Virus record (IMG/VR): IMGVR_UViG_2541047812_000007
Span: 1-43,602 of that record
Source of the DNA: a virus
Lineage: Duplodnaviria > Heunggongvirae > Uroviricota > Caudoviricetes
Reading direction: 5' to 3' (one strand)
DNA: 43,602 nt
The notes beneath the pieces were generated by a model that saw nothing but the letters and a program-made list of their open reading frames with translations, was not told where the DNA came from and did no database searches. Each line of letters opens with the position of its first letter. The stretch's first letter is position 1. Shown here piece by piece: positions 532 through 43,602 of this stretch. Made by a program: the position numbers and the translations under genes.

Positions 532-1071
532 ATGAAGAAAGTTTTTCTTTGCGCCATCTTAGCCTCCTTAAGCTATCCGGCTATCGCCTCATCATTGCAG
601 GATCAACTCTCGGCTGTCGCAGAAGCGGAACAGCAAGGTAAAAATGAAGAGCAAAGGCAGCATGACGAATGGGTCGCGGAGCGCAACAGGGAAATCCAGC
701 AAGAGAAGCAACGTCGCGCAAACGCCCAGGCCGCGGCTAATAAAAGAGCGGCAACGGCAGCAGCGAATAAGAAAGCTCGTCAGGATAAACTGGACGCCGA
801 AGCCACTGCGGACAAAAAACGCGATCAAAGTTATGAAGATGAGCTACGTAGCTTAGAGATTCAGAAACAAAAACTGGCGCTGGCGAAAGAAGAAGCCCGC
901 GTCAAGCGCGAAAACGAATTTATCGATCAGGAACTGAAGCACAAAGCTGCGCAAACCGATGTGGTGCAATCTGAAGCTGACGCAAACAGAAATATGACTG
1001 AAGGCGGTCGCGATCTGATGAAAAGCGTGGGCAAAGCAGAAGAGAACAAATCGGACAGCTGGTTTAATTAA
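532..1071 (+). CDS. Secreted charged coiled-coil protein; probable host flank
   Basis: SD (AGGAGG) then ATG; N-terminal signal peptide ending AIA-SS; rest is highly charged Q/E/K/R/A-rich. Confidence 0.6.
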   Translation: MKKVFLCAILASLSYPAIASSLQDQLSAVAEAEQQGKNEEQRQHDEWVAERNREIQQEKQRRANAQAAANKRAATAAANKKARQDKLDAEATADKKRDQSYEDELRSLEIQKQKLALAKEEARVKRENEFIDQELKHKAAQTDVVQSEADANRNMTEGGRDLMKSVGKAEENKSDSWFN

Positions 1072-1115
1072 TCGATGTAAGTAACTTCAAGCCTATAATT
1101 CTTGAAGATAAAAAA

Positions 1116-1141
1116 CCCTCTGTAGTAACAGAGGGTTTTGT
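1116..1141. terminator. Rho-independent terminator after the host-like gene, likely bidirectional
   Basis: Hairpin CCCTCTG-tagtaa-CAGAGGG followed by TTTTG and preceded by an A-run. Confidence 0.6.
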
Positions 1142-1267
1142 TCATTCATAGTGCAGGGATCAAAATCATTCCCACTCAATTATTTACGACAACCATAACC
1201 AATTGACTGATAACATTTTTCCAAACCTCAACTTTTCCCGTACCGTTTTATATACCGTCACCGGAAA

Positions 1268-1765
1268 TCAGTGCCACGATTTTTTCTTCTTCAGTGAATC
1301 GTATTGCTGCTCGCAGAATTCCCCTGCGATACGATACTTTTCAGCCTCAGCTGCTGTTGCGTTGTAAACTCGGTTGCTTTCTTCAAGCATGTCGGCGAGC
1401 ACACCGATGACCTTGCTGGCTGGCGTGCCAGGGGGGAAAGATCCGGTATAGTGTTCGGCGAGCCGCCTGGTTTTGTCAAGCTCGGCGCGCATGCTGTCAG
1501 CAGCGGAATTAGCATACTCAGCATCAGCACGCGCCGCATCGATACGGGATTGTGCTTCACGTTCAATTTGTGTTTTCTCCTGCTCACGCTGTGACCTTAA
1601 CTTATCATCAGCCTGTTTCTGATCTTCCTTCGCCTGCGCATACCCGGCATCGTACTGACGGATGCCGTGCACATTCCAGGCAACAACTCCTGATATGACC
1701 AGAACAGCAAGCATCGCCACGATAAGTAACTGTTTACGGTATGCTTTTACAAATGCCCAGATCAT
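1268..1765 (-). CDS. Rz-like inner-membrane spanin (i-spanin)
   Basis: N-terminal TM helix then charged coiled-coil; immediately downstream of the endolysin with a 4-nt ATGA overlap. Confidence 0.6.
1291..1539 (-). CDS. Rz1-like outer-membrane lipoprotein spanin (o-spanin), embedded in Rz in another frame
   Basis: Embedded ORF with signal peptide [16 protein letters not shown] followed by Cys (lipobox LLTAC) and a proline-rich mature part. Start chosen at the Met preceding the signal peptide. Confidence 0.5.
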   Translation of the reverse strand: MRRVLMLSMLIPLLTACAPSLTKPGGSPNTIPDLSPLARQPARSSVCSPTCLKKATEFTTQQQLRLKSIVSQGNSASSNTIH

Positions 1766-2391
1766 ACCGCCAGTACCTTACTTGCTGTGATGTACCGCGC
1801 ACGCCGGTCGTCGATACCGTTTCTGCCACCATTGATAATCAGAGTTACACGTACAATATCGCCGGTATACTTCATGCATCCTTTGCTGGCGAAGAACCAC
1901 GCCGCGCTACGAGCCGCATATTCGTCCTGCGCCAGCAGTTCAGGGCTCTCCAGCAGGTCAACCTTCAGACCGTTTCCGCAATCACGATAGTTATTCAAAC
2001 CGGTAATCTGGATAAGTCCGCGCCCTCGGTAATTCCAGCCATCACCAGGGGCATTGTTCCCCATGCGTTTGCTGTATACCAGATTTGCGATCGCGCGCTG
2101 GCGCTCAAGTGGCAATGGTGGTTCACCAGCACGGCGCCCCAGTGCATTAGCCTGCCCCTGAGTGAGACGCCCAGCCCGAACGAAGTTAGCCAGTCCGCTG
2201 ACACTGTAGTTGAAATTCTCCTGCAACCTGGTGAAGCTCCCAGACTCATGCCCGACTTGAGCAATAAACATTGCCTGATCTTCTGCTTTGCTGATACCAA
2301 ACTCTTTCATCGCAGAAGTTATATGCGAGAACCAGCGTGCGGCCAGTGCCTCGCTGATACCAGCAGCTCGCTGGAATTGTTTAATCTCCAT
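1762..2391 (-). CDS. Endolysin, glycoside hydrolase family 19 (chitinase-like lysozyme)
   Basis: Motifs QVGHESG and [11 protein letters not shown] typical of GH19 phage endolysins. Start set at internal ATG (MEIKQF...) instead of the longer ORF-track start at 2556. Confidence 0.85.
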
Positions 2392-2689
2392 GTTTAGACC
2401 TCGATACTTTAAAAATTTGAACGACGTTACCGCGCGTTTTAATAACCGCAGCCAGCATGACAGCGTTGATAATGACCTCAGATAAATCCACAGCCATTGG
2501 CGTACGTAACCAGATTGCATAGGCGACTCGAACAGGAATACTGGCCGCAGCAACAATCAGGAAATAAGCAAGCCATCCTCCCCACCTTCGATGTTGAGAG
2601 CCGTTACGCCGGAATGTGACAACGCGAATTGCTATGCCAGTGCAAATAACTGCATTGGTGATAAGCAAAAAAAACTCATGCGTTACCAT
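2381..2689 (-). CDS. Small membrane protein, holin/antiholin-like
   Basis: 102 aa with hydrophobic TM segments; overlaps the endolysin start by 11 nt and the upstream membrane protein by 14 nt. Confidence 0.5.
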
Positions 2690-3080
2690 CGTCTTTTCTC
2701 CCCGGAATTAACTCGCGTGGATTATCGGAACGGTGATAGAGCCATATACCAATACGCACAGCGACAATTGCTGACACGAATGCGCCTGCAGAGAAAACAA
2801 TCCCTTTTTCAAAAGAGTCCTGCGTGATGGTAGGGATCAGGCTGGCTATGCCGATAAGAATTGATGCTGCTGGTTTGTAAAAGAGAAGGCCACAAAGAAA
2901 GCTGAGCATCGAAAGGAGCACCCGGCGACGGATGGGGTACTCTACTGCAGAGGTAACAAAAATTACCGCCCCAGCCAAAGCCCCTAAAGCAACCTCCGGA
3001 GGGACACCTGCAATAACCGCAGCAAGAGAACCAAAACTAAGCAACTGATTTAATTGCTCACTTGTTACTTGAGCAGACAT
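2676..3080 (-). CDS. Holin-like multi-pass membrane protein
   Basis: 134 aa, several hydrophobic helices, charged C-terminus; first gene of the lysis cassette, preceded by a 300-bp AT-rich noncoding region. Confidence 0.55.
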   Translation of the reverse strand: MSAQVTSEQLNQLLSFGSLAAVIAGVPPEVALGALAGAVIFVTSAVEYPIRRRVLLSMLSFLCGLLFYKPAASILIGIASLIPTITQDSFEKGIVFSAGAFVSAIVAVRIGIWLYHRSDNPRELIPGRKDDGNA

Positions 3081-3361
3081 ACTTTCTCCTGTTTACTATC
3101 TATAAGCCAGTCAATTATTGATGACTAACCCCGCATAGTAAACCATATATGAATCATTATTGTTCCATATCATATATCTCAATAAAAGTACTAATGATTT
3201 TACAGAACGAGCCAGCAGAGTGGGGGCAGTTGTACAGGAACCATAGACTTAATTTTGTATTTAATAATGCTATGGTGTAATAAACCTGAACATGTATTTA
3301 AAATACGTACTGATTCATGATAGAATTCAAAGATAACTTTTCACAAACTCCGTTTTTGATA

Positions 3362-3390
3362 CCCGCAAAATATTGCGGGCTTTTTTTTAA
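3362..3390 (+). terminator. Hairpin plus T-run at the tailspike 3' end
   Basis: CCCGCAA-aat-ATTGCGGG followed by TTTTTTTT on the plus strand; the minus-strand version has a weaker U-tract. Confidence 0.4.
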
Positions 3391-6300
3391 CGTTCTTCCA
3401 GAGACTGAATCCGCTCTTTTATCTTATCCATTTCTCTGCGCTGCCATGCCGCCTCGATATAGAATAAGAGATCAGGTCTGACCCCCCATCTAGATCCTGC
3501 TGGCGTTATTTCAACGCGCTCAATGATGTCTTCCATTACCATCACTGGATTATCATCCTCATCAACAATGATGCTCCCGTCATTATCAGTCAGCGGCATT
3601 TCCCTTTGGCCAGTAATGACGTCATCATATACTGCGGGATAATCGTCATAGCAAAGAAAGGCATAGCGGCATGTTGTGCTTTCTTCTTCCATGAGTCCGT
3701 GAGAAATAAGAACATCACGAAGTTGCTGCGCGATTACACCATGATGTATCCTCGCTCCTTCTTCCCCCTTTATAGCGACAGCGTTCAGCCATTTATAAGC
3801 GATATACCTGACGTCACCCCAGGCATCCAGCAATGCTTCGTCAGGAGAGACCGGCTCTGTCTTTAATGTTCCGTCACTGGTAACCACAGGATTGGAGCCA
3901 AGATAAACTGTCGAGAACCTGTTTCCCGGACCACCAAGAGCATTTACATTATCAAGATAAGGTTTAACATCTCCGTTCTCAAAAAGATGTTCGAGTGCGT
4001 TATATACCGCGCGACGTGGAGTACTGCTTCCGGAACCATGCAACGTTATCATTGCACCATCTGCTGAAGACGTTGTTTCACCGCCGCTAACGATTAATCT
4101 CTGAGCGGTAACATCATCAGACGGTACTTTCTTCGCAATAATGGCGTAATTACCCTCAAGTTTGACTTCCGCGCGAACTTGTCCTGATGTACCTGCATGG
4201 ACAGTCAGTGACTGGACGGCAACATCATCTGTGAAATCAACGGGTACAGGAACCGTCCTCACGCCTGACGTCGACATAAAAGTAGGAAGCGTTCTGTTAG
4301 GAGTGGCTCCGTAGACAAAATCCCTTGAAACAAATTCTTCCTGTTTAATTTTCACCCTGAAACAATACAAATCAGCCGGGTGACCATCGTGAACATAAGG
4401 ATATTTTCTGTTGTTATCCCCTATGCTCCATGGGTTTAGAAAGTCTTCCCCACCGAAAATGTAGTACAGCCAGTTGTCTTTGATACAAACTGAACCAACA
4501 CCAACCGCAGAGTTAACTATTCCGCCCTGATAAATCTGATCAGTAACATTAACCCACTCTACATTATCCAGACTCCACTCATTGACGTTAACTCTGGTCA
4601 TAAATGTTCTTGGATAATTTCCTGCATAACGGTTATCAGGTTCTCCTCCTTCCCACTCACCAAATGCGCGCTCACTGCCAAAAATAATCAGCTCATCGCC
4701 AACTTTGGCAAAAGGAAGGTTTGAGTGATGAACATTATTTGGGAAGCGAAGAGAATTCCATGATGTACCTAAATCAGAGCTTCTGTGCAATGAACTACCG
4801 GGTTGAGTACTTAATGTCCCCCTGGTCGTCAGATACAGAATGCCATCATAATATTTTACACATGGCTCAGATGCATTCGCCTCATATTCTGCAGGTATGC
4901 GTCTGCGAACAAAGCTACCAGGAGAACCGAAAGCATCAGAGAAATAGAGTATCCCAAGCTCGCGTGGACCAATATCACCATTATGGTAGCCAACAGCAAA
5001 ACTGTTATCGCTAATCGTCGCAAAACTGTGAATCTCAGTAACAGGAGTGCTTCCGTCAACAAAAGAAGGAATAGTTCCAAGACTGGTTTTTCTCCATGGT
5101 GACGAGTGAAATGATGTACCAAAACTCCAGTATCTACCCTCGTTATTCTGATCCACATCCTGGGTATTTTGCGTCGTAACTGTAAAAGTATTTTTATCAA
5201 TAACAGTAGTCACCGTCATATTCCCGGTAACACCTGTAACACCAGAGTTTGAGAAGTTGACAAAATCACCAGCAAATAATCCGTGATCAGTAATGCGAAT
5301 ATAAGCGACTTGCTGATTTGCTGCTTTCGTTATACCACCATAAACGCGAAGGCTGCGACTCATTGGGCGATCCCACAACTCTGCAACCTGCAGTTTATTT
5401 CCTCTCACGGTCCGCGTCTCAATTACAGCAAAAAGGCGATTTCTGACAACCCCCATACTCATGCAGTGATAGTTAACTGTGGGATAGTTTTCATGTAAAT
5501 CTGTAAGCCATTCCGGCGTTGTCCAGGTCTTCCCGTCATCTCCTGAGCGAACCCATGCAACATGGAGGTTATTTACACCATGGCGGTCTCCAGCCATAAA
5601 AGGCGCATAGATGACATTGTCATATACAAACGTTTTATCCTGCGTCCAGGCGTTGTACCACGGTGTATCTGTAATTTTAAATAACTCTCCCTGGATAAAA
5701 TCTTCAGAAGCATAAAAAAGAGGCTGGCCCGGTATTCTCTCAAATAAAAAACGAGCATTTTTAAATCGACTGACATCCGGAAGAGTTGATACTTTAAAAG
5801 TAAGCCCTAATCCGTCAATTTTATAACCTGGAGATGAGGCTTCAAGGCACGCGCTTATTGCAGTGGAATCGTCATTTATACCATCACCAACAGCTCCAAA
5901 ATCTTTGGGGCTAATAGCATCACGCATTTTATCCTGGAACGTTCGGTACACAGCCCCAGAACCATACTGAATAAACCAACCAAAACCACCAACAACCCCG
6001 GCGATTGCAGCATCGACATAATTACGCATTGAGCGATTATTTACAGCGTCCTGCTCAAATGATGGATCTGCAAGGTTAGAAATTTTGTTTTGCTTTGCAT
6101 CGTAATATTTTGCAAGCAAAGATGGTTTCATCAATGCACGTCTGAACCACCCAAAACATTGCTGGATCAGCATCGTCAGGTAGTCAAAGGCATCTTCATG
6201 CACTTCGGGGAAAAATTTTCCCTGATTGCGAAGGTCTGTCTCCTGCACTACATCAAGCACACGATCTATCGTAATTCGCCATCCAGTAGCAAGCGGAGAC

Positions 6301-6506
6301 GGAAGAACCACAGAACCGCCACTATAAGTGCCCGCCCCAGTTACCGTATAACCGGTATCCAGAACCAATTCTGTTACGTTTCCGTTCAGGTCAGACACCT
6401 GAACAACCAGGTCTGATTTTCTGAAAATTCGAAAAGTATACGGAAACGATGTCGTAACGCCGTTACCGGTGTATTCGTTGTGGTCAACTTCGGTTGAGAC
6501 CGTCAT
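3387..6506 (-). CDS. Tailspike/tail fibre: T7 gp17-like N-terminal domain, sialidase-like Asp-box domain, C-terminal intramolecular chaperone-like domain
   Basis: N-terminus resembles T7 tail-fibre N-domain (YTGNGVTTSFPYTF..RKSDLVV); two Asp-boxes SGDDGKTW (nt ~5523-5546) and SSDLGTSW (nt ~4758-4781); last ~160 aa resemble the autoproteolytic chaperone domain of endosialidase-type tailspikes. SD GGAG before ATG. Confidence 0.8.
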   Translation of the reverse strand: MTVSTEVDHNEYTGNGVTTSFPYTFRIFRKSDLVVQVSDLNGNVTELVLDTGYTVTGAGTYSGGSVVLPSPLATGWRITIDRVLDVVQETDLRNQGKFFPEVHEDAFDYLTMLIQQCFGWFRRALMKPSLLAKYYDAKQNKISNLADPSFEQDAVNNRSMRNYVDAAIAGVVGGFGWFIQYGSGAVYRTFQDKMRDAISPKDFGAVGDGINDDSTAISACLEASSPGYKIDGLGLTFKVSTLPDVSRFKNARFLFERIPGQPLFYASEDFIQGELFKITDTPWYNAWTQDKTFVYDNVIYAPFMAGDRHGVNNLHVAWVRSGDDGKTWTTPEWLTDLHENYPTVNYHCMSMGVVRNRLFAVIETRTVRGNKLQVAELWDRPMSRSLRVYGGITKAANQQVAYIRITDHGLFAGDFVNFSNSGVTGVTGNMTVTTVIDKNTFTVTTQNTQDVDQNNEGRYWSFGTSFHSSPWRKTSLGTIPSFVDGSTPVTEIHSFATISDNSFAVGYHNGDIGPRELGILYFSDAFGSPGSFVRRRIPAEYEANASEPCVKYYDGILYLTTRGTLSTQPGSSLHRSSDLGTSWNSLRFPNNVHHSNLPFAKVGDELIIFGSERAFGEWEGGEPDNRYAGNYPRTFMTRVNVNEWSLDNVEWVNVTDQIYQGGIVNSAVGVGSVCIKDNWLYYIFGGEDFLNPWSIGDNNRKYPYVHDGHPADLYCFRVKIKQEEFVSRDFVYGATPNRTLPTFMSTSGVRTVPVPVDFTDDVAVQSLTVHAGTSGQVRAEVKLEGNYAIIAKKVPSDDVTAQRLIVSGGETTSSADGAMITLHGSGSSTPRRAVYNALEHLFENGDVKPYLDNVNALGGPGNRFSTVYLGSNPVVTSDGTLKTEPVSPDEALLDAWGDVRYIAYKWLNAVAIKGEEGARIHHGVIAQQLRDVLISHGLMEEESTTCRYAFLCYDDYPAVYDDVITGQREMPLTDNDGSIIVDEDDNPVMVMEDIIERVEITPAGSRWGVRPDLLFYIEAAWQRREMDKIKERIQSLEER

Positions 6507-8172: not shown

Positions 8173-8391
8173 ATGTTTAAATTTGATATGCAACTTAACC
8201 AAAACTATGCCTCTTTTTACCATCCAGAAACTGGTAAAGCTGTTTTCGTTGACTCTTTCGATAATGAAGAATTTGATATCAGAATTGGGACCCTACGCCA
8301 AAGTAAGCATGTTGCTACTGTACGTGCATCCAATGATGATGAATTAAATCAAAAAATAAGTGAGGCGACCTCCCGTTATCTATGTCTATAA
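8173..8391 (+). CDS. Hypothetical protein (72 aa), first gene of an AT-rich two-gene moron
   Basis: Strong SD GGGAGG 6 nt before ATG; low GC relative to surrounding phage DNA; no family recognised. Confidence 0.6.
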   Translation: MFKFDMQLNQNYASFYHPETGKAVFVDSFDNEEFDIRIGTLRQSKHVATVRASNDDELNQKISEATSRYLCL

Positions 8392-8759
8392 CAGAACAAC
8401 AACTCATTGATCTTGAGGATGAGATTAACGAGATCTTGCAAGAAGATGCGGCAAGAATTCACTTTTCATTTCACGCAGCATATGAACGCCTGAACGACGA
8501 GAGGAACAAACCGCCAATTACTCTTGCTGAGCTTGAAGATGTGTTTAAATCGTTTATATCTGCACATCTGCAGACTGTTTTGGATTTTGCTGAAGGTACA
8601 ACTTTCACCATAAAGTGCAACAAAAGCGCCCTTCATTTTCCTTGCGCCATTGTACACGAAAGAGAGTTTGGGAAAACGTGGGTTATCCAAAACGTCATTA
8701 CAGCCATGAGGAAAGTGGGATTCAAGTCTAAAGATTCTATTATCCTCGAAGTTAATTAA
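8382..8759 (+). CDS. Hypothetical protein (125 aa), second gene of the AT-rich moron
   Basis: Start overlaps upstream stop by 10 nt (translational coupling); followed directly by an intrinsic terminator; no family recognised. Confidence 0.6.
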   Translation: MSITEQQLIDLEDEINEILQEDAARIHFSFHAAYERLNDERNKPPITLAELEDVFKSFISAHLQTVLDFAEGTTFTIKCNKSALHFPCAIVHEREFGKTWVIQNVITAMRKVGFKSKDSIILEVN

Positions 8760-9063: not shown

Positions 9064-9318
9064 GCACGTCCCTGTGCCGCCGTTCTGTCAGAAGAACCCT
9101 GCCTTGTCGTTGATGTATTCCGCGTGCGTCTGGATATCACGCAGGCATTTGCTCACACCAACGATGTAGCAGAACATGGTGGTCAGCTCCGCCGCCGCGC
9201 CCGATACATCGTGCCCGTCTTCCTGTAACTGGTTCAGCAGATTCATCAGCAGTGAGTTCTCCGTCAGGCCGAGAACACCCGACGGCGAATGAATCAGACT
9301 GCGGTAGCCTGGCTTCAA
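9064..9318 (-). repeat. Copy 2 (inverted) of the ~260-bp antirepressor 3' repeat
   Basis: Reverse complement aligns with 7729-7993 and 42073-42341 with few substitutions. Confidence 0.8.
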
Positions 9319-10026
9319 TGGATAACCATAACATTTTGTCTGTGTTTTAATTGCCTCACGAAGCGCATCTAACATCTTGACTGCCACTTCATCATTCTCT
9401 GATGCAGATCCAGCAGGGAGATACTCCCCTTCAAGCGGAACCCGAGCAACAAGAGACAACGCTTCGGCAAATTGATCTTCACCAATTTCTTTGTACGAAC
9501 AGCCAAAATGAGATTTCAGTGACGACCACATGGTGATCATCGCCTTAGCCTGTTTTTCTTTTGGCAGAGACTGACCGCGACTCATGACGAGTTGTTTAAT
9601 GGCTTCCTGCTGTTCAGTTGTTATTTTACCCGGCAACGCCTTTTTAGCTTTGCGTGGGTTAACCACATGGCCTTTAGTCCAGTACTCGTAGAGCACATCG
9701 TCACACTCTTCCTGATACTGGATTACCTTGTCGCGGATTTCAGGGCGGACTTTGTTAGGGCTGATGCTGTTCAACCAAGCTGCCAATTTTCGTAAAGCCA
9801 TACAAATCATGGCTTGCACCCCACCGGCAGAAGGTATGGTGATTTCCACCATACCCTTCGAGAAGCGTTGAGAAATCTTCTTATGTTGAGATTTCCAGTC
9901 TAGCCCCATTCCCTCAACGATAGGTTTCATTGGGGTATACGGTTCGCCGTTGTGATTGACAACATAAAGCTCTGCGCCGTGGAATGGCACGTTGATAGTA
10001 GATACTGCTGTTGCTATACTCGTCAT
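9088..10026 (-). CDS. Antirepressor (ant-like), distinct N-terminal domain plus shared C-terminal domain
   Basis: 312 aa; SD AGGA before ATG; sits downstream of an Arc-like gene as in P22 immI; C-terminus shared with the other antirepressors. Confidence 0.8.
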   Translation of the reverse strand: MTSIATAVSTINVPFHGAELYVVNHNGEPYTPMKPIVEGMGLDWKSQHKKISQRFSKGMVEITIPSAGGVQAMICMALRKLAAWLNSISPNKVRPEIRDKVIQYQEECDDVLYEYWTKGHVVNPRKAKKALPGKITTEQQEAIKQLVMSRGQSLPKEKQAKAMITMWSSLKSHFGCSYKEIGEDQFAEALSLVARVPLEGEYLPAGSASENDEVAVKMLDALREAIKTQTKCYGYPLKPGYRSLIHSPSGVLGLTENSLLMNLLNQLQEDGHDVSGAAAELTTMFCYIVGVSKCLRDIQTHAEYINDKAGFF

Positions 10027-10098
10027 GTCGTTAATTCCTATACGTAGTTTTACGATACTGAAGCCCTGACGGTCTGGCCACCGTGGGGCTTCGCTGTT

Positions 10099-10266
10099 TT
10101 ATGCCACGCTATTCTTCTCACCAGTGAGTCCATACACTTTCCTCAGCTGATAGATAATCTCTGTATTGAACTTTCGGCATTCTTTTTCGCCATTTCTTTC
10201 AATAGCTAACTTCACATCGTCCGGAAAACGAACTCGTCGTTGACACATCTCTTTTGCTTTTTGCAT
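10099..10266 (-). CDS. Arc-like ribbon-helix-helix repressor
   Basis: 55 aa from internal ATG with SD AAGGAG 7 nt upstream; resembles P22 Arc (RFPDDVKLAIERNG...NTEIIYQLRK). Confidence 0.6.
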   Translation of the reverse strand: MQKAKEMCQRRVRFPDDVKLAIERNGEKECRKFNTEIIYQLRKVYGLTGEKNSVA

Positions 10267-10280
10267 TTCATATCTCCTTA

Positions 10281-10295
10281 GCCCCACCGTGGGGC
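10281..10295. promoter_or_regulatory. Palindrome GCCCCACCGTGGGGC upstream of the arc-like gene
   Basis: Inverted repeat next to the arc SD; core CCACCGTGG recurs at 10078-10086 and 29359-29367. Confidence 0.35.
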
Positions 10296-10386
10296 AAAAT
10301 AATTGTCACACCGTGCGTCATTGATGTCAAGCACACGGTGAGGCATACTTCAATCATTGCAAGTAACTCAATATTTGGTGAAGAAC

Positions 10387-10818
10387 ATGAGCAGAGAAGA
10401 TCCACAACTAAGGATCAGACTTCCCGTCGAAGTAAAAGAAAAAATAGAAATTTCTGCAAAAGCCAATAAGCGATCAATGAACGCTGAAATAGTACAACGT
10501 CTTGACACCAGCTTTCTGAAAGATATTCATGAAGATGACGTAATTTCTGCTTATGAAGCAAAAATCATTGCAAACAATGCACGACATGAAATATCAAATA
10601 TTATTTTCAAAAGAACCTTTAATGAAATTAATAAGAAAATAACACTTGGACATACAAGTTTTTATATAAACCTTAATGACCTTGAACTGGAATCACTTGC
10701 AGATAATGATTACCAGATCATCTTTGAAAAAACATTTAATAGGCTCAATGAACTAGGTTACATCATCTGTGAAAACTCATGGGATGCAGATGGTTTTGGA
10801 ATTGAAATACCTGAATAG
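10387..10818 (+). CDS. Mnt-like ribbon-helix-helix regulator with a ~95-aa C-terminal extension
   Basis: N-terminus resembles P22 Mnt/Arc (LRIRLPVEVKEKIEISAKANKRSMNAEIVQRL); divergent from arc/ant; AT-rich C-terminal domain of unknown family. Confidence 0.6.
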   Translation: MSREDPQLRIRLPVEVKEKIEISAKANKRSMNAEIVQRLDTSFLKDIHEDDVISAYEAKIIANNARHEISNIIFKRTFNEINKKITLGHTSFYINLNDLELESLADNDYQIIFEKTFNRLNELGYIICENSWDADGFGIEIPE

Positions 10819-10831
10819 GAAGAACAAAAGG

Positions 10832-10848
10832 CGTGTACATATTACACG
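10832..10848. promoter_or_regulatory. Perfect palindrome CGTGTA-CATAT-TACACG
   Basis: 17-bp inverted repeat between the mnt-like gene and the membrane protein gene. Confidence 0.3.
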
Positions 10849-10908
10849 TCTTTAATACAATTGAAAAACGCCACATTACTGATGTATGTTACAACAAGGA
10901 GCGATATT

Positions 10909-11472
10909 TTGAAAACCATATCTATATTAAAGGTTGCATTAGGCGTCGCTATTATTTTGACTCTCTCAATATTGTTTTATTTTTACCACAAACAAACTGC
11001 TATTGCTCTTGATAGTCACGCGGCAAACTCATTTTTCTCAGAGTACATAGTGCCGCTATCAGGAAGCGGTATAACAAATAAATATACTGACTATGACATC
11101 AAATATGGAATTGATGATGGGGAGACTATTGTATTACATGTAATCATTAAAAACCTAATGACAGTAAATAAAAATACAGACTTCAACGATAAAAATACAA
11201 TACATCACAACAACAGCAAAACATTAATTTCTTATAGTAGCAACATCTATACGGATAAATACCTAAAATACATATCAGAAGATACAATAAAAGAAACCCG
11301 CGAAAAGTTAAAAAACATATATTGTGCATCCGGCAGTTTTCACAAATTATCGCCGCAAGAGCGTTTATTCTACGAAGCAAGAAAACAACGTAAGTCAATA
11401 ATATTACATTATTATGCTGATTCAGGGGAGACACTCATATTTAATATTGGGGTTTCCCCTGAATCATGCTAA
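10909..11472 (+). CDS. AT-rich membrane-anchored protein, candidate superinfection-exclusion moron
   Basis: TTG start 7 nt after strong SD AAGGAG (ORF-track start 10861 also TTG); N-terminal TM helix; roughly 33% GC; occupies the position of sieA in P22-type maps. Confidence 0.55.
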   Translation: MKTISILKVALGVAIILTLSILFYFYHKQTAIALDSHAANSFFSEYIVPLSGSGITNKYTDYDIKYGIDDGETIVLHVIIKNLMTVNKNTDFNDKNTIHHNNSKTLISYSSNIYTDKYLKYISEDTIKETREKLKNIYCASGSFHKLSPQERLFYEARKQRKSIILHYYADSGETLIFNIGVSPESC

Positions 11473-11483
11473 AGGTGTTTAAC

Positions 11484-14400
11484 TCACCGCATCACCGGAT
11501 CCACTTGGTTTATTAGTGGCGCAATCCAGAACAGGTTATTGCCGGGTATCAGGGTTCGGACATTATGCACAATACGATCACCGGCATCACCATTCAACAC
11601 TCCTGAGGTCACATCAATGATGCTATCCGCAAGACCAAATGACGGTCCGAATAGAGATCCTACGAATCCACGACTGGCATACCTGGACTGTGTGCCAGTG
11701 CCAAATAAAGCCCCCAGCCCAACAGCACCACCAGTCGCCTTTTCAGCCATGTTGTTATATTCCATCAATGGCCCAAGAATACCGGATCTATCTATACCCT
11801 CAAGCACCAGCTTCTCTGGTGACCAGTCAACATTTTTCCCTTTCGATGCTTCTTTAAGCGCATAGACCAGTGAGCCAAGAGCAATCTGAAATGCAGTGCC
11901 ATAATAAAATTGCGCAGTTCCTTCCTGTAACCCACCAAGTAGCGCACGGTTGTATGAAGCCGTTGTGAATGATTTAAACTGAAATATCGTTCGCCCCATT
12001 GGAGTACTCGCCCATAAAGGTGTGTCACCAATACCGGGGGTGATGATAGTGTTATTAACGTCTTTCAGAACCGCTGACTGGAATACTCCGGCAACGTACT
12101 GATCGTCCCATTTATCAAAGTTACCAATGTGCCATCCATCAATTACCTCACCATGTTTCTCGAACTCACTGCGAATACGCGCAGCCATATTGTCGTTGAT
12201 ACCGAGTTTTGCCATGCGACGTGCAGAAAACGCACCAGACAAAATACCGTCTGACGTGAGCATTCCGTTCATGGATTTGTTTATGTCATTAAATCGATCC
12301 ATGAGTGTCAGCTTGCCGAAGGCATCAGTAATTCGCTCCATTCCTGCTTCGACTGCTGTTGTCCTGGAAGAACTGTCAACAAGATCACCAATTGCACGAG
12401 AACGTGAATGTAGTACAGTTTCCAATCCAATCCCCATCTTCAACATCTCTTCTTTGCTGGCCTTAAATGCCGGTGATTGGGATATCTGAGAAGCATAGCC
12501 TTTCATGGAGTTACGGAAACCATTAACCATAACCCCTCTGGCCAGATCTGGAATAGCTGATACTGTCATTCCACCGAGTTTGGTCGTGAAGTTCACATCC
12601 CGCAGAAAAGCGCCAGCACGAACAAAAAACGAAGACGGGTCATCAGGCATACCATATGTACCAACAAGACGATCGCGTAATGCTGTTATGTCTCTGAGAT
12701 CATTTGCTCTTGATTTTGAAAGTCTGGACTGTTCTTTCCGTAATTCCTTTTCGTACTTTCGCATTAATGAATCGAGTTTACCCTGAGGAACAACTTCACC
12801 ATTGCTCTCATAACGTGCTTTCAGATTTGCCACACTTTCGTCATATTTCGCCTTTATTTTTTCAGGCACTTCCCGTAACAGACTGTCATATTCGTCCTCA
12901 ATTAATTGCAGACGCTCTGTCATAGTTCGTTTGCCAAATGTTCTCGTCAACTCAATTTCTGCTGCCGCTTCACGGATATGACGTTGTAGAACGTAATTCA
13001 CATCACTTTCGAGATAATCCCTGATAAGACTATCAGGCACATTTAATGTTCTTTCTTTCGTACTACCTGCGGCTTTTACAGAAAATACGCTGACAAAATC
13101 CTGTGGAACCTTAGCACCAGTAATTTTATTAATTACGATATCCGCTGCAATTTCAGCATCCTCAGGATCCAGTGTTTTATTGCCTCTCGACCACCAGTCA
13201 ACCAAAATACGTCGAAATTTATCGCGTTCACTGATTATTTTTCCAACTTTATATATACGTGGGAAATAGCTTGCCTGGCCTAATGCTTTCAGTTCTTCAT
13301 CTGGCGGCAATAAACCAAGCTTTTGCATTTCAACCTTCACCCGATTTAATACAGTTCGCATCGCCTGCGCCGTTTCCTGAACAACAGGATTAGCATGCAC
13401 ATCACCGCTTCGCATAGCATTCCCAACCTGCTGACGAAATGAATCAAAACTCATGTCACCACCATCAGCTTTATACTTTGCGTATGCCTGTTTATTTCCG
13501 ACAACAACAGCAGCTTCTTCACGCTGCCATCCACGTGTACGGGTTTCTACAGCTACCGGTGTTTCAATCCCCCTTTCATTTCCTTTAAGGGTGAAATTAT
13601 TTTCGGCTAACTCCAGCGTTGTTTTTCGCACTGTCTTGGACGGAGACTCCATTAACCTTGTCAAAGGAGTAAGATAGCTCCCTGCTTTCCATGCAGCCTT
13701 TCCAACCACCCCACCGGAAACAGGGGTTAAATCATCCAGAGTCGCTGTATCAATTTTCATAGCACCAACACTACCACCATCAGAAAGCGAAGCGGCAGCC
13801 CTGTCAGTCGCTGATGTAATGCTCATATTATCAAGAGCATCAGCAACCTCACGCGTGGCTGCAGCCCGGACGGATGGCGAAAGCGCAACACCAGCACTGG
13901 CAAACACGCCGCTCATCATCGCACCCGCTGCAATGTGAGCGGCACTTTCACCCCATGAGCGTGTTATTTGCTGATTATTCAGCACAACCTCGCTTAATGC
14001 TGTACCGGCTGCACCAATCGCAATCTGTGAGCCAATACGCGCCAGTGCCCCTCCTTGAGCACCGGGGATAAACATTGACGCAACAGTAACCGGATCCATT
14101 CCCGCAGCAATACTGGCAAGGGTTCCAACTACGCCAGCATCAGACAATAAACGTCTGTCTTCATTTTCATCATCTATCTGCTGCTTAATCCACGCCGTTT
14201 CCTCTGGCGATCGGGAATCTGCAAATTTCGCCCCCCAGTATTCATAACCGTGCAACTCATTTTTATCAGCATATGGGTTATAACCTTCGACCGGTTCAAA
14301 CTGTCTGGCTGGTCGGAAAAAACCAGCCAGAATATTGTTCTGTCGCATTGCAGCCCCCCATACGGAAGGCTCCGGTGGCAATGGCTCAGGATTAGCCCCT

Positions 14401-14498
14401 TCCGGAAGGGCAACATCAAACCCAGTTTGTTCCGGCAAAACATTACCTGACGGGATCAGTCCGTTATTAAGATCTTCAGCTTGTGCATAAACTGGCAT
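11484..14498 (-). CDS. Large internal virion/ejection protein (1004 aa)
   Basis: Long ORF in the virion operon downstream of the transglycosylase protein; size and position like podovirus internal core proteins. Confidence 0.65.
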   Translation of the reverse strand: MPVYAQAEDLNNGLIPSGNVLPEQTGFDVALPEGANPEPLPPEPSVWGAAMRQNNILAGFFRPARQFEPVEGYNPYADKNELHGYEYWGAKFADSRSPEETAWIKQQIDDENEDRRLLSDAGVVGTLASIAAGMDPVTVASMFIPGAQGGALARIGSQIAIGAAGTALSEVVLNNQQITRSWGESAAHIAAGAMMSGVFASAGVALSPSVRAAATREVADALDNMSITSATDRAAASLSDGGSVGAMKIDTATLDDLTPVSGGVVGKAAWKAGSYLTPLTRLMESPSKTVRKTTLELAENNFTLKGNERGIETPVAVETRTRGWQREEAAVVVGNKQAYAKYKADGGDMSFDSFRQQVGNAMRSGDVHANPVVQETAQAMRTVLNRVKVEMQKLGLLPPDEELKALGQASYFPRIYKVGKIISERDKFRRILVDWWSRGNKTLDPEDAEIAADIVINKITGAKVPQDFVSVFSVKAAGSTKERTLNVPDSLIRDYLESDVNYVLQRHIREAAAEIELTRTFGKRTMTERLQLIEDEYDSLLREVPEKIKAKYDESVANLKARYESNGEVVPQGKLDSLMRKYEKELRKEQSRLSKSRANDLRDITALRDRLVGTYGMPDDPSSFFVRAGAFLRDVNFTTKLGGMTVSAIPDLARGVMVNGFRNSMKGYASQISQSPAFKASKEEMLKMGIGLETVLHSRSRAIGDLVDSSSRTTAVEAGMERITDAFGKLTLMDRFNDINKSMNGMLTSDGILSGAFSARRMAKLGINDNMAARIRSEFEKHGEVIDGWHIGNFDKWDDQYVAGVFQSAVLKDVNNTIITPGIGDTPLWASTPMGRTIFQFKSFTTASYNRALLGGLQEGTAQFYYGTAFQIALGSLVYALKEASKGKNVDWSPEKLVLEGIDRSGILGPLMEYNNMAEKATGGAVGLGALFGTGTQSRYASRGFVGSLFGPSFGLADSIIDVTSGVLNGDAGDRIVHNVRTLIPGNNLFWIAPLINQVDPVMR

Positions 14499-17215: not shown

Positions 17216-17790
17216 CAGTAACCTCCTATTTTGAATCGGGAGTCAGAATTCATAAAACCTGAGTTAGATAACATTGGCGTCCCACCACTAGATGTACTTC
17301 CTTTAGAGAACGGACTCCACGTCCCACCAAACATCTGGTACGCACCGTATGCCTTCAGAGGCGCAGTGAGCAATGTTGTTGCTGCTCCCACATTCCCCTG
17401 TTTACGGGCTGAACTGGCTTCTGCTTTATAGTTGGCAGCCTGAACCTGATAACCGTAAGCCTCGCGTTGCGCGTTATTCACCGTCGTCAGAGAATCAAGA
17501 GCGCCAAACTGGGCAGTGTCGCCAAATATATCCAGCGCGTTACCTGTAGATAAATCAGCGCCGGTAGCCCCCATTGTCGCCGCCTGTGTACCAAGCCGCT
17601 GTCGGGTCTCTCTGCGCCGTTGCTCAGCTTCAGCGTTACCTCTGTTTATTGCATCATTTGCCTGAGCTGTGGCTATATCTGCGTTCGCTTCTGCAACCTT
17701 CGAGGCATACTTTCCCTGTTGGTACTGGGTGTATGCCTGAATGCCACTCATGGCGAGCATTGCGCCACCAGCAATAACCGGATCGCACAT
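17215..17790 (-). CDS. Internal virion protein (191 aa), gp14-like position
   Basis: Ala/Gln-rich protein between the small gp13-position gene and the large core proteins. Confidence 0.55.
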   Translation of the reverse strand: MCDPVIAGGAMLAMSGIQAYTQYQQGKYASKVAEANADIATAQANDAINRGNAEAEQRRRETRQRLGTQAATMGATGADLSTGNALDIFGDTAQFGALDSLTTVNNAQREAYGYQVQAANYKAEASSARKQGNVGAATTLLTAPLKAYGAYQMFGGTWSPFSKGSTSSGGTPMLSNSGFMNSDSRFKIGGY

Positions 17791-26541: not shown

Positions 26542-26618
26542 GTGGCATTAGCTCAGTTGGACAGAGCAACCGCCTTCTAAGCGGTTGGTCGCAGGTTCGA
26601 ATCCTGCATGCCACGCCA
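26542..26618 (+). tRNA. tRNA-Arg, anticodon UCU (reads AGA)
   Basis: 77-nt cloverleaf folded by hand: acceptor GTGGCAT/ATGCCAC, D-arm GCTC/GAGC, anticodon stem ACCGC/GCGGT with loop CTTCTAA, T-arm GCAGG-TTCGAAT-CCTGC, discriminator G, encoded CCA. Confidence 0.9.
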
Positions 26619-35814: not shown

Positions 35815-36399
35815 ATGAAAAGTATCCAGGACGTCCGCAGGCAAAATCTCAACGACTTGATCGACCGTGAATTCAATGGTGTTCAGACGCGGATGGCAGA
35901 AAAACTTGGAACTCAGGCAAATCTGGTAAACCGCTGGGCTCTTGGCAAGAAGGTTATCGGCGACCAGGTTGCGCGAAAAATTGAAGCTGCCGCCAATAAA
36001 CCCCGTAACTGGCTTGATATCGATCGCTCGCTTTCTCAGGAAGGTTTTCAGCCTGTCGGCCCAAGCGACATTGGTCAGCTGGCGGCTCACAACCTGGAAC
36101 GCTGGATGAGCGAAAGCCGCGACCTTTCAACACAGGGAAAACTTCACCGCGCATCCGGCGTCGCCCAGGTGACAATCAGCCGCCTGTTAAACAATGAGGT
36201 CAGCGTTTCCATTTCCACCCTGGAGAATGTTGCATCCGCATTCGGGCGTCACGGATATGAACTACTGATTCACCCGCACGACCCTGCGACTATCAACTAT
36301 GACCGCTCACGCTACGCATTGTTACCCGAAACCGAGAAAGCAAAGATCGAAAGTTACATTGAATTTGTCATCAACCAGAACGAAAAAAGCAAACAATAA
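35815..36399 (+). CDS. Prophage repressor with two HTH motifs and no peptidase domain
   Basis: 194 aa; two XRE-type HTH segments; no S24-like autocleavage motifs seen in the C-terminal part. Confidence 0.7.
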   Translation: MKSIQDVRRQNLNDLIDREFNGVQTRMAEKLGTQANLVNRWALGKKVIGDQVARKIEAAANKPRNWLDIDRSLSQEGFQPVGPSDIGQLAAHNLERWMSESRDLSTQGKLHRASGVAQVTISRLLNNEVSVSISTLENVASAFGRHGYELLIHPHDPATINYDRSRYALLPETEKAKIESYIEFVINQNEKSKQ

Positions 36400-36710: not shown

Positions 36711-37745
36711 ATGAGTGAATTATCAATCATCGAAATCACACCAGACATGGCACCAAGAATTTACGTTGAAAAAGGGCTGGAAAAGTTTCTCGAGCAGATC
36801 CGTGAAGGTGTTAATGAAGTGCCTGACATTAGCACAGACAAAGGCAGAAAGCGCATTGCATCTCTGGCTGCGAAGGTTTCAAGAAGTAAAACAGCGGTAG
36901 AAAAACCAGGACGTGATTATCTGAAACGCCTGAAAGAACAGCCGAAAGTAGTTGAAGCAGAGTTACGACGCTTCGTAACCGAATGCGATCGGCTTCGTGA
37001 TGAAGTACGCCGCCCACTCACCGAGTGGGAAAATGCTGAGAAATTACGCACTGAAGCACTGCAACAACGCCTGACAAATTTGCGAGCACTAGCTGACGTG
37101 ATCGATCTCTCCGGAAACTACTTGCCATCATCTGATATTCAGGAACGAATTCAAGAGGCTAAATCAGTAGCACTTGATGAAAGTTGGCAGGAGTACGCAG
37201 CAGAAGCTGGAGTAGCCAAGGATTCAACCATCAAGAAACTGGAAGAATCACTCGCAGTAGCTCAAAAACGCGAGCATGAAGCCGCTGAGCTGGAGCGACT
37301 TCGCAAAGAAGCGGAGGAAAAAGCGCGCATTGAGCGAGAAGAGAATATCCGACGGGAAGCTGCTGAACAGGCCAGGCTCGAAGCTGAACAAAAAGCGAAA
37401 GCTGAAATTGAGGCTGCGGCACGCCTGGCGGCGGAAGAAAAAGCACGTGCTGAAGTAGCAGAACGTCAGCGAATTGAAGCAGAGCAGCGTGCACGACGCG
37501 AAAAAGAAGAAGCCGTTGCCGAGGAACGCCGACGCCAAGAGGCGGCAGAAAAAGCCCGCCTTGACGAACAGAAGCGTATCGCCGACGAAGAAGCGCGCCG
37601 AGCTGCAGATAAAGAGCATCGCCGTACCGTTAACCGCAGAGTAATCGCAGATCTGATAGCCCAAGGCATTCACGAAGAATTCGCGCAGAAAGCAATGTTG
37701 GCTATCGCTGGCGGCAAAGTGCAGGACGCGTATATCAAATATTGA
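36711..37745 (+). CDS. Hypothetical coiled-coil protein with E/A/R/K-rich repeats
   Basis: 344 aa; long charged segment; upstream of the exonuclease/RecT pair. Confidence 0.6.
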   Translation: MSELSIIEITPDMAPRIYVEKGLEKFLEQIREGVNEVPDISTDKGRKRIASLAAKVSRSKTAVEKPGRDYLKRLKEQPKVVEAELRRFVTECDRLRDEVRRPLTEWENAEKLRTEALQQRLTNLRALADVIDLSGNYLPSSDIQERIQEAKSVALDESWQEYAAEAGVAKDSTIKKLEESLAVAQKREHEAAELERLRKEAEEKARIEREENIRREAAEQARLEAEQKAKAEIEAAARLAAEEKARAEVAERQRIEAEQRARREKEEAVAEERRRQEAAEKARLDEQKRIADEEARRAADKEHRRTVNRRVIADLIAQGIHEEFAQKAMLAIAGGKVQDAYIKY

Positions 37746-42351: not shown

Positions 42352-43602
42352 TTATTCCCCCGCTATCCACTTCTCAAACTTCGACGGGGAGAACGGAATC
42401 AGATCTGTATGCTCCCCGTTAATCCAGGAATCAATCATATCGGCCCACTGCTGCAACATGTAGGCGCGCTGTCTGGCGTATTCCGCTTTGTTATATACGG
42501 CGCGCACACCTTTCTGCTCATGTGCCAGAGCCTTTTCAATCCAGTCTGAAGGATAACCAGCCTCATGCAACAACGTACTGGCTGTACGGCGCATATCATG
42601 TACAGTGAAGTCCTGAATATGCTCACCATCTTCATTTATTATTTTCACCGTTCTGTCGATCAGAGAGTTCAGCGCGGCATTAGATAATGGCTTCCGGAAA
42701 TTGTAACGACCAGGAACCAGATATTCACTTCCACCAGCGCACATCTGCAACCCGACCAATATATCCTGTGCCTGTTTAGGCAGGTAAATAACGTGCGCCC
42801 GGCTTCCCTTCATGCGGTCTGGAGGAATTGTCCATGTCCATTTTTTAAAATCTATTTCATCCCACGTTGCATTGGTGAATTCGCCCTTACGAACCATAGT
42901 GATAAGCACCAGTTTTAAAGCCATTTTCATAGTGCCCATAGCACCAATGGCATCCAGCGTACGGAAGAACAGGCCAATTTCTTCTGGTGTCAGTGTTCGC
43001 TCTCGTGGTTTAAATATGGCGATAGACGAAGGTTTAATGTCAGCCGCAGGATTAAACAAACCATGACCACGGTCATTGGCGTGACGGTATACGCTGCTGA
43101 TGATCTCCCTTGCCTGTACTGCTGTTGCCCGACCACCGCGTTCGACAATCCGGTCACACAAATCACGAACCATCGATGTGGTAATTTCAGCCATCATTTT
43201 GTTGCCAAGAACCGGAAGTATGTCACGGTCGATCACTGCCTGCTTCATTGCGCGGGTACTTTCAGCCAGGATGACGTGTTTCATATAACTGTCGGTATGT
43301 ACCGCAAACGTCTCGGCACCACGAATCTTTTTGATACCGTCACGTTTAGCCGCAGCCGGCGACTGGCCTGCTTTAAGCAGCTTCTTTGCAGCAATCAGTT
43401 CTTCTCGCGCTTCTGCCAGGCTGATACCGTCACGCCCATACTGCCCGATTACCAGTGTTTCGCGGCGACCGTTGATACGGTAGTCATAGCGAAACGAGAC
43501 CGTGCCTGACGTAAGCACAGCTACATACAGCCCGTCACGATCGGAGACCTTGTACAGTTTGTCCTGCGGCTTGAGGTTTTTTAATTTTGTATCGGTAAGC
43601 AC
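42352..43602 (-). CDS. int: Tyrosine integrase (P4-type)
   Basis: C-terminal catalytic residues (HDMRRT, LAHE, conserved Tyr region); start codon sits at the window edge, so the true start may lie outside. Confidence 0.9.
   Translation of the reverse strand: MLTDTKLKNLKPQDKLYKVSDRDGLYVAVLTSGTVSFRYDYRINGRRETLVIGQYGRDGISLAEAREELIAAKKLLKAGQSPAAAKRDGIKKIRGAETFAVHTDSYMKHVILAESTRAMKQAVIDRDILPVLGNKMMAEITTSMVRDLCDRIVERGGRATAVQAREIISSVYRHANDRGHGLFNPAADIKPSSIAIFKPRERTLTPEEIGLFFRTLDAIGAMGTMKMALKLVLITMVRKGEFTNATWDEIDFKKWTWTIPPDRMKGSRAHVIYLPKQAQDILVGLQMCAGGSEYLVPGRYNFRKPLSNAALNSLIDRTVKIINEDGEHIQDFTVHDMRRTASTLLHEAGYPSDWIEKALAHEQKGVRAVYNKAEYARQRAYMLQQWADMIDSWINGEHTDLIPFSPSKFEKWIAGE

Follow-up and report, generated by a model that had tools for sequence, protein, structure and literature searches.

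A putative K1 endosialidase tailspike in an ε15-like (Uetakevirus) prophage of Escherichia coli and its near-identity to the CUS-3 enzyme

The closest described relative of the tailspike analyzed here is ORF7 of phage vB_EcoP_ZX5 (QTH80017.1; MW722083, Uetakevirus), which was described, by domain annotation only, as having a T7-like N-terminus, an endosialidase middle region and a chaperone C-terminus (Pathogens 2022, PMC9782041), and which carries the GenBank label "tail fiber domain-containing protein." ZX5 is experimentally temperate, forming plaques on and lysogenizing an O87:H52:K1 strain, and integrates at the 3' end of guaA (PMC9782041). SiaK1 of CUS-3, a Lederbergvirus prophage of E. 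coli K1 RS218 (CP000711), is annotated in its record with endo-alpha-sialidase activity (evidence IDA, citing PMID 16689790). The third relevant enzyme, endoNF, is gp17 of the virulent T7-like phage K1F (GH58; PDB 1v0e, 3gvl, and 3gw6).

The window (the whole stretch of DNA that was analyzed, 43,602 nucleotides) contains a single intact ORF on the minus strand at 3387-6506, with an ATG start, a TAA stop, no frameshift, and GGAG positioned 8 nt 5' of the ATG. The ORF gives a protein of 1039 residues, one more than the 1038 of the original prediction. A hairpin at 3362-3379, just past the end of the ORF, was not called as the tailspike terminator, since its T-run is on the other strand. Identity to ZX5 ORF7 is 100% in protein and 99.9% in DNA, the copy in APEC O1 differs by one residue, and 72 complete E. 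coli genomes in RefSeq already have the gene labeled as an endosialidase. The identity and domain layout of this tailspike are, as such, already published and annotated, and the finding, which bears out the original prediction, is an ordinary one. We consider it very probable that the gene encodes a receptor-destroying K1 tailspike and belongs to a temperate podophage of the ε15-like (Uetakevirus) kind that has integrated next to yfgI in E. coli.

3387..6506, minus strand: complete tailspike gene, 1039 aa, 115.7 kDa precursor (endosialidase with a predicted self-cleaving chaperone domain)
1164..1180, minus strand: attachment core ATTGAGTGGGAATGATT, the prophage end adjoining yfgI (single exact match in the window)
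1268..3080, minus strand: lysis cassette that follows the tailspike gene, encoding a GH19 endolysin, a DUF2514 protein and two holin-like proteins (likewise annotated in ZX5 and APEC O1)
42352..43602, minus strand: tyrosine integrase at the window end (Pfam Arm-DNA-bind_3 and Phage_integrase)

The gene is a Uetakevirus (ε15-like) temperate podophage tailspike by its anchor and genome position, and by the P4-type integrase and attachment core at guaA/yfgI. The core is the published attP of ε15, phiV10, and ZX5 (PMC9782041). The flanking yfgH and yfgI genes are arranged as in APEC O1, whose nearly identical prophage occupies the yfgI site; the second att copy and guaA fall outside the window. 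The genes follow the order seen in ZX5 and phiv142-3, and the ZX5 neighborhood of antirepressor, tailspike, holins, endolysin, and integrase matches that of the window, with the two integrase genes sharing 98.6% nucleotide identity. The best match among complete genomes was FDAARGOS_1300, covering 96% of window positions 1-25000 at 99.3% identity. A temperate background, which had been proposed from the letters of the DNA, is borne out by the integrase, an HTH repressor at 35815-36399 and the attachment core, as well as by the presence of the identical protein in the experimentally temperate ZX5 (PMC9782041).

It is feasible, if improbable, that the gene is intact within a prophage that is itself a defective remnant, in which case no virion would ever carry the endosialidase and the enzyme would amount to a fossil. 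Megablast found no match in ZX5 for about 15 kb of the prophage, including 9318-17308 with its two large virion proteins, and decay does occur, as an IS3 element interrupts this same gene in genome 23CRST038. However, the span from attachment core to integrase holds long ORFs for terminase, portal, capsid, tail, and ejection proteins as well as for the tailspike and lysis functions, the tailspike reading frame is free of frameshifts and encodes the very protein of a phage that forms plaques, and conservation of the gene is 99.2% or higher in the 60 carrier genomes listed out of 72. When the ORFs not shared with ZX5 were searched for defense or capsule-modifying cargo (Pfam and PADLOC), there were no defense hits, and only antirepressor (P22_AR_N, AntA, and Bro-N), Arc-like, Ead/Ea22, and DUF551 domains were found.

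The Pfam scan found all four endosialidase domains in the protein, and these are arranged in the domain order of endoNF, followed by a chaperone domain.

5694..5894, minus strand: endosialidase N-terminal extension domain, aa 205-271 (Pfam PF12218, E 5.9e-32)
4344..5693, minus strand: catalytic six-bladed beta-propeller, aa 272-721 (Pfam PF12217, E 6.5e-233, full profile 1-367)
5112..5360, minus strand: beta-barrel domain inserted in the propeller, aa 383-465 (Pfam PF12195, E 3.2e-46)
3879..4343, minus strand: stalk (tail-spike) domain, aa 722-876 (Pfam PF12219, E 8.4e-78)
3387..3878, minus strand: C-terminal intramolecular chaperone domain, aa 877-1039 (163 aa, 18.7 kDa), with the stop codon (Pfam PF13884, 3gw6)
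5523-5546, minus strand: Asp-box 1, SGDDGKTW, aa 321-328 (pairs with endoNF SGDDGQTW)
4758-4781, minus strand: Asp-box 2, SSDLGTSW, aa 576-583 (pairs with endoNF SRDIGQTW)
4866-4868, minus strand: catalytic residue codon E547 (aligned to K1F E581)
4821-4823, minus strand: catalytic residue codon R562 (aligned to K1F R596)
4668-4670, minus strand: catalytic residue codon R613 (aligned to K1F R647)
3876-3878, minus strand: predicted nucleophile Ser877 (aligned to K1F S911)
3861-3863, minus strand: Lys882 of the predicted self-cleavage dyad (aligned to K1F K916)

With its propeller, Asp-boxes, active site, inserted barrel, and triple-beta-helix stalk, the protein fits the phage endosialidases (endo-N-acetylneuraminidases, CAZy GH58). 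The original prediction had named two Asp-boxes and called the protein a K1F-type endosialidase, suggesting a comparison with the solved structures. Both boxes are present, aligned with those of endoNF, and are the sole occurrences of the pattern S-x-D-x-G-x-x-[WFY] in the whole protein, both within the propeller; the endosialidase call is upheld by the four Pfam domains, by the endoNF structures 1v0e and 3gvl, which align with aa 205-876 at E=0, and by the five differences from CUS-3 described below. Identity to endoNF is 61.8% over aa 196-1039, with a 7-residue insertion after aa 481 relative to that enzyme, and the catalytic trio E581/R596/R647 and the S911/K916 dyad of endoNF are shared. 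Glu581, Arg596, and Arg647 of endoNF reportedly have a catalytic role (Stummeyer et al. 2005). In the R647A mutant chain 3gvj, alanine stands opposite R613 in the alignment, and H309 of the tailspike, which corresponds to endoNF H350, is also conserved. The roles of the equivalent residues in the tailspike, drawn from endoNF and its mutant PDB chains, are putative.

The chaperone-like C-terminal ~160 residues of the original prediction were likewise recovered, as Pfam PF13884 (Peptidase_S74, "Chaperone of endosialidase") matches the C-terminus with 41.4 bits, above its cut-off of 22 (E 1.7e-10), the solved structure of the endoNF chaperone domain, 3gw6, matches it at E 1.4e-67, and the Ser/Lys dyad is conserved. 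In 3gw6, an S911A mutant, alanine lies opposite Ser877 and the lysine at +5 is kept, and the endoNF crystal constructs stop at the residue aligned with T876. Autoproteolysis had been placed near residue ~878, which was close; the predicted position is corrected to Thr876/Ser877, and cleavage there would give products of 97.1 and 18.7 kDa. The predicted mature protein (aa 1-876, 97.1 kDa) would then terminate with the stalk.

The nearest match to the enzymatic part of the gene is in CUS-3.

3416..5808, minus strand: 2393-nt block comprising the catalytic part, stalk and most of the chaperone domain (99.4% identical to CUS-3 siaK1)

This block corresponds to gene nt 699-3091, and the encoded aa 234-1025 differ from SiaK1 by five substitutions, none of them at catalytic residues, while the last 14 residues of the two proteins differ. 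Both proteins come from temperate K1 prophages and have like catalytic, stalk, and chaperone modules. Since the record of the CUS-3 enzyme cites a direct assay and only five substitutions separate the two, hydrolysis of alpha-2,8-polysialic acid by the tailspike is predicted. CUS-3 and the window's prophage differ in that phase-variable neuO adjoins the tailspike gene in the former and is absent from the latter, where a search for a neuO-type capsule O-acetyltransferase or AAGACTC repeats found none present.

The distribution of the gene also links it to the K1 capsule. The polysialyltransferase gene neuS was found in all 60 checked genomes with a full-length tailspike gene (the 60 listed of 72 carriers), a count that pools divergent-type with K1-type neuS, against a background of 329 of 5426 genomes (6.1%); 14 of the 329 matches are just 80-90% identical and represent the divergent type. 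The named carriers are K1 strains (O1:K1:H7, O2:K1:H7, O7:K1 CE10, IHE3034, and APEC O1). It had been predicted that the lysogen's host carries or carried a polysialic acid capsule, and that a kps/neu cluster would be worth seeking in the host genome; the neuS count and the O87:H52:K1 host of ZX5 agree with the former, and the cluster is complete in the relative APEC O1. By analogy with these relatives, the window's own host would be K1.

We think it quite unlikely that the real substrate is something other than plain alpha-2,8 polysialic acid, such as the K92 alternating alpha-2,8/2,9 polymer or one K1 O-acetylation state only. The divergent neuS matches pooled in the carrier check, the five differences from CUS-3 in aa 234-1025 and the absence here of the neuO-type repeat and gene present in CUS-3 leave some room for such a substrate, but the catalytic residues and overall sequence are near-identical to those of an enzyme annotated as K1-active, the named carriers are K1 strains, and the host of ZX5 is K1. 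An adhesin-only spike that binds polysialic acid but is catalytically dead has nothing specific in its favor and is most improbable, given the conservation of E547, R562, R613, and H309 relative to endoNF E581, R596, R647, and H350 and the near-identity to an assayed enzyme.

Upstream of the endosialidase module, the K1 tailspike departs from both CUS-3 and K1F.

5910..6506, minus strand: N-terminal virion anchor, aa 1-199, of ε15/phiV10 (Uetakevirus) type with a T7 gp17-like fold (homology and Foldseek)
5809..5909, minus strand: bridge segment with DFGAVGDGINDD, about aa 200-233 (unmatched by the phiv142-3 or CUS-3 blocks at the DNA level)

The N-terminus of CUS-3 SiaK1 is of the P22 head-binding type, and its aa 1-133 gave no alignment with aa 1-192 of the tailspike, which was accordingly not placed in the CUS-3/P22-like (Lederbergvirus) tailspike class. 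The anchor is instead shared with phiv142-3, at 97.6% nucleotide identity through gene nt 596, where similarity ends (blastn), and with phiV10, SPN1S, and TL-2011b, at 67-70% amino acid identity across aa 1-166/173. The tailspikes of these four phages have the anchor and genome position in common with the window's, and their receptor-binding parts are unrelated to it; the 709-residue phiv142-3 tailspike, for instance, has 92% identity over aa 1-227 and none thereafter. Related prophages at the same chromosomal site encode a GH28-related protein instead of the endosialidase.

The anchor had been proposed to be T7 gp17-like, which was supported at the level of fold and failed at the level of sequence. 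BLASTP against T7 gp17 gave E 0.057 over 22 residues, Pfam PF03906 (T7 tail fiber N-terminal domain) scored 15.9 bits, below its 25.2 cut-off, matching aa 135-161 alone, BLASTP detected no similarity between K1F gp17, including its N-terminal 236 residues, and tailspike aa 1-195, and a profile built from 25 homologs and searched against the PDB did not retrieve T7 gp17. With an AlphaFold model of aa 1-203 that is confident at aa 10-80 only (pLDDT ~90 there, poor beyond), Foldseek matched 7boz, 7ey9, 8dsp, and 7ey7 (E 6e-5 to 5e-3, probability 1.00), including the T7 gp17 N-terminal structures 7boz and 7ey9 at E 3-5e-4 and 7ey7 with an rmsd of 2.6 Å over 82 columns. The anchor thus appears to resemble T7 gp17 in fold only, below sequence thresholds, and on this modeling it and the endoNF anchor would both belong to the T7 gp17 fold class; it is better named ε15-type (Uetakevirus) than T7/K1F-type.

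The bridge is likely a recombination zone. In protein alignments its GDGxxDD motif is shared and the surroundings have diverged, and there is a weak Pfam Pect-lyase match at aa 201-221. The upstream crossover would lie in the bridge at a conserved DFGAxGDGxxDD motif, at which Uetakevirus tailspikes of other specificities also diverge. The gene is read as mosaic, its Uetakevirus anchor being joined through the short bridge to an endosialidase module nearly identical in DNA to that of CUS-3.

From the solved and assayed homologs endoNF and CUS-3, we infer how such a protein may work. The 116-kDa precursor would trimerize with the aid of its C-terminal chaperone domain, which would then remove itself via Ser877/Lys882 by a cut between Thr876 and Ser877, leaving a 97-kDa mature chain docked on the phage tail by its N-terminal 200 residues. 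The beta-propeller would hydrolyze the alpha-2,8-polysialic acid of the K1 capsule through Glu547, Arg562, and Arg613, with further polysialic acid binding sites on the beta-barrel and stalk, and the virion would thereby bind the K1 capsule and tunnel through it.

Escherichia coli encapsulated with K1 causes neonatal meningitis, sepsis, and avian colibacillosis, and endosialidases serve as capsule-stripping reagents, diagnostics, and candidate therapeutics. Since the catalytic part of the tailspike is in essence that of CUS-3 and the protein as a whole equals ZX5 ORF7, it adds no new enzyme to these. The full-length gene is a reliable marker, having predicted a neuS-positive host in 60 of the 60 genomes checked, and it illustrates cleanly how lineages of temperate phages swap receptor modules. 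There is perhaps an even chance that a 2.4-kb endosialidase cassette is being passed between two unrelated kinds of temperate podophage, CUS-3 (P22-like) and the ε15-like prophage, where both reside in one K1 chromosome. Both a CUS-3-like and an ε15-like prophage are present in at least 13 complete genomes, and, if such movement is true, these double carriers would supply the substrate for cassette exchange.

The tailspike gene (window 3387-6506, minus strand) is one uninterrupted ORF with an ATG start codon and GGAG 8 nt upstream, and its product has 1039 residues rather than the 1038 originally reported. The two Asp-box strings quoted in the original prediction were located at residues 321-328 and 576-583; a pattern scan of the whole protein found no others, and both line up with the two Asp-boxes of endoNF, the endosialidase (gp17) of phage K1F. 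Five domains were identified by Pfam, in the order typical of endosialidases:

Residues 205-271: End_N_terminal (E 5.9e-32)
Residues 272-721: End_beta_propel (E 6.5e-233)
Residues 383-465: End_beta_barrel, an insertion (E 3.2e-46)
Residues 722-876: End_tail_spike (E 8.4e-78)
From residue 877: Peptidase_S74, "chaperone of endosialidase" (E 1.7e-10)

A PDB search with residues 205-876 matched the endoNF structures 1v0e, 3gvl, 3gvj, and 3gvk at E=0 and the phi92 endosialidase (4hiz) at E 7e-271, which with the Pfam domain set bears out the predicted endosialidase architecture; likewise, the Peptidase_S74 domain and a C-terminal match to the endoNF chaperone-domain structure 3gw6 uphold the predicted chaperone-like domain. 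Overall identity to K1F gp17 is 61.8% (residues 196-1039). When residues were mapped from K1F gp17, as translated from its fetched sequence, all six were found in the tailspike:

K1F gp17 H350: tailspike H309, conserved
K1F gp17 E581: tailspike E547, conserved
K1F gp17 R596: tailspike R562, conserved
K1F gp17 R647: tailspike R613, conserved
K1F gp17 S911: tailspike S877, conserved
K1F gp17 K916: tailspike K882, conserved

In endoNF, E581, R596, and R647 are catalytic residues, and the Ser-Lys dyad serves in cleavage. The mutant chains 3gvj and 3gw6 have alanine opposite tailspike R613 and S877, respectively, an independent check of the alignment register.

The original observation is confirmed and its interpretation supported; the tailspike proved to be already published and annotated. 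The gene is 99.9% identical in DNA to that of Escherichia phage vB_EcoP_ZX5 (MW722083), and the ZX5 ORF7 protein is 100% identical. ZX5 is a Uetakevirus (ε15-like) of 39.6 kb whose isolation host was O87:H52:K1, and it was found by experiment to be temperate, integrating at the guaA 3′ end with the core ATTGAGTGGGAATGATT (PMC9782041). The layout described for ORF7 (PMC9782041), with a T7-like tail-fiber part at the N-terminus, a central endosialidase part, and an endosialidase chaperone at the C-terminus, is the same as in the original prediction. Among the 5426 complete E. coli genomes in RefSeq, 72 have the full-length gene, including APEC O1, IHE3034, CE10, and IAI39; the 60 listed copies of these 72 have 99.2-99.9% identity, and all carry the annotation [quoted passage not shown] In strain 23CRST038 (NZ_AP045810.1, 3431589-3436021) the gene is disrupted by an IS: its two pieces span 4433 bp, and the annotation places an IS3-family transposase between them.

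Carriage of the gene coincides with that of neuS, the polysialyltransferase gene of the K1 capsule cluster, which is present in 329 of the 5426 genomes (6.1%). When neuS was appended to the tailspike query and the places per record were compared with the tailspike-only search, exactly one extra place appeared in each of the 60 listed carriers (72 in total), and thus all 60 are neuS-positive; the place totals are consistent (694 + 329 = 1023). In APEC O1 the cluster is complete (kpsFEDUCS, neuS, neuE, neuC, neuA, neuB, neuD, kpsT, and kpsM), with neuS annotated as an alpha-2,8-polysialyltransferase. We infer that the window prophage's own host is likewise K1.

The window begins within chromosomal yfgH and yfgI (1-1071), as in APEC O1, and contains a single copy of the att core, at 1164-1180. 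In ZX5 the attP-to-integrase spacing is 190 bp (PMC9782041), and so the second att copy and guaA are expected just beyond position 43602, the window being cut within the prophage-chromosome junction region. Beyond the att core come, in turn, the lysis cassette, the tailspike gene, antirepressor and virion genes, a tRNA-Arg, terminase, replication genes, the HTH repressor, RecT/RecE-type genes, and the tyrosine integrase. Selected features are:

1268-3080: lysis cassette
8382-8759, plus: 125-aa ORF, no Pfam or PADLOC hit
9088-10026, minus: P22_AR_N antirepressor gene, most of it inside 9318-17308
10357-10818, plus: Arc-like repressor
10861-11472, plus: 203-aa ORF, no Pfam or PADLOC hit
11484-14498, minus: 1004-aa protein, no Pfam hit
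14498-17215, minus: 905-aa protein with SLT transglycosylase domain
26542-26618: tRNA-Arg (anticodon TCT), between portal and terminase regions, inside the prophage
35815-36399: HTH repressor
36711-37745, plus: 344-aa ORF, no Pfam or PADLOC hit
42352-43602: tyrosine integrase, at the window end

The att core, repressor, and integrase agree with the temperate background proposed at the outset, and we consider it unlikely that this particular copy of the prophage is defective. The tRNA-Arg gene has an annotated counterpart in the APEC O1 prophage. About 28 kb of the window aligned with ZX5 in separate blocks (84-99% identity) and ~15 kb, including 9318-17308, had no megablast match in it, indicating that the prophage is a mosaic relative of ZX5 and not ZX5 itself; the APEC O1 prophage likewise had no megablast match from 9318 to 17785. 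From its genes, the 8-kb segment 9318-17308 appears to be an alternative module for immunity and ejection proteins; the GC content drops to 0.37 at 10-11 kb. The 344-, 125-, and 203-aa ORFs lie partly or wholly inside segments without a megablast match in ZX5. Directly past the tailspike stop codon is a GC-rich hairpin, CCCGCAAAATATTGCGGG (3362-3379), whose T-run lies on the plus strand, whereas the tailspike gene is on the minus strand; judged from its sequence, it would stop transcription arriving from the direction of the lysis genes, not that of the tailspike gene.

The predicted T7 gp17-like N-terminal anchor, the virion-binding part of the tailspike, stands by fold but not by sequence. 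BLASTP gave T7 gp17 at E 0.057 over 22 residues, no demonstrable sequence likeness, and no match to the K1F N-terminus; PF03906 scored 15.9 bits, under its cut-off of 25.2, and a profile of 25 anchor homologs found other podophage fibers without T7 gp17. An AlphaFold model of residues 1-203 (pLDDT ~90 at residues 10-80, poor beyond) had the Carin-1 tail fiber (8ck1) as its top structural match, followed by the T7 gp17 N-terminal structures 8dsp, 7ey9, 7boz, and 7ey7 (E 6e-5 to 5e-3, probability 1.00; 7ey7, rmsd 2.6 Å over 82 columns). We class the anchor as ε15-type with, by this model, a T7 gp17-like fold.

To what was observed directly (the domain content, the residue conservation, the near-identity to an enzyme with assayed activity, and the host association) can be added a mechanism drawn by analogy with work on endoNF and the P22-like K1 prophage CUS-3. 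The precursor would trimerize, assisted by the chaperone domain, and then self-cleave between Thr876 and Ser877 to give predicted products of 97.1 and 18.7 kDa. Residues 1-200 would dock the spike onto the phage tail, and the spike would then bind and hydrolyze alpha-2,8-polysialic acid, giving the virion access to the outer membrane. The CUS-3 endosialidase gene, siaK1, is 99.4% identical to nt 699-3091 of the tailspike gene, and its record cites direct assay of endo-alpha-sialidase activity. Between residues 234 and 1025 the two proteins have only five differences (A266V, R368S, G826R, T866I, and A891T), none catalytic. A shifted substrate preference, e.g., toward K92 or a particular O-acetylation state, seems very improbable, and a catalytically dead spike we regard as even less credible.

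The tailspike gene is itself a mosaic. The ε15-like phage phiv142-3 is 97.6% identical to the upstream DNA and gene nt 1-596 (residues 1-199), whereas its 709-aa tail protein is unrelated to the tailspike beyond residue 227; the tailspike N-termini of the ε15-like phages phiV10, SPN1S, and TL-2011b have 67-70% identity to the anchor (residues 1-166/173). The anchor also has 80% identity to a Kluyvera cryocrescens protein (P0009, 277 aa) that bears the name "N terminal extension of bacteriophage endosialidase," which suggests that the anchor-plus-endosialidase combination exists outside E. coli too. The P22-type head-binding domain of CUS-3 is absent from the tailspike, and the final 29 nt of the tailspike gene differ from siaK1. 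Between the two blocks, a bridge at gene nt 597-698 (window 5809-5909, ~residues 200-233) has no DNA match to either the Uetakevirus or the CUS-3 block. It carries DFGAVGDGINDD, diverged forms of which are common to the tailspike, CUS-3, and phiv142-3 proteins, and the motif also stands at the start of the unrelated receptor domain of phiv142-3. On this sequence pattern, the bridge may plausibly be a hot spot of the recombination that swaps receptor modules.

The CUS-3-type tailspike junction was found in 154 complete E. coli genomes, at least 13 of which also have the Uetakevirus-type endosialidase gene (IHE3034, EC69, N1, N21, N54, APEC O18, ST95-32, CE10, AREA_486, MS20659, OZ546925, OZ546911, and CUVET21-H2); in IHE3034 (NC_017628), for example, they lie at 2717233-2718053 and 2884245-2887364. 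These genomes, at least 13, are double lysogens of two K1-specific prophages whose 2.4-kb cassettes are ~99% identical. The remaining interest of the tailspike is evolutionary: near-identical endosialidase cassettes are carried by two unrelated lineages of temperate podophages that often reside together in one K1 genome.
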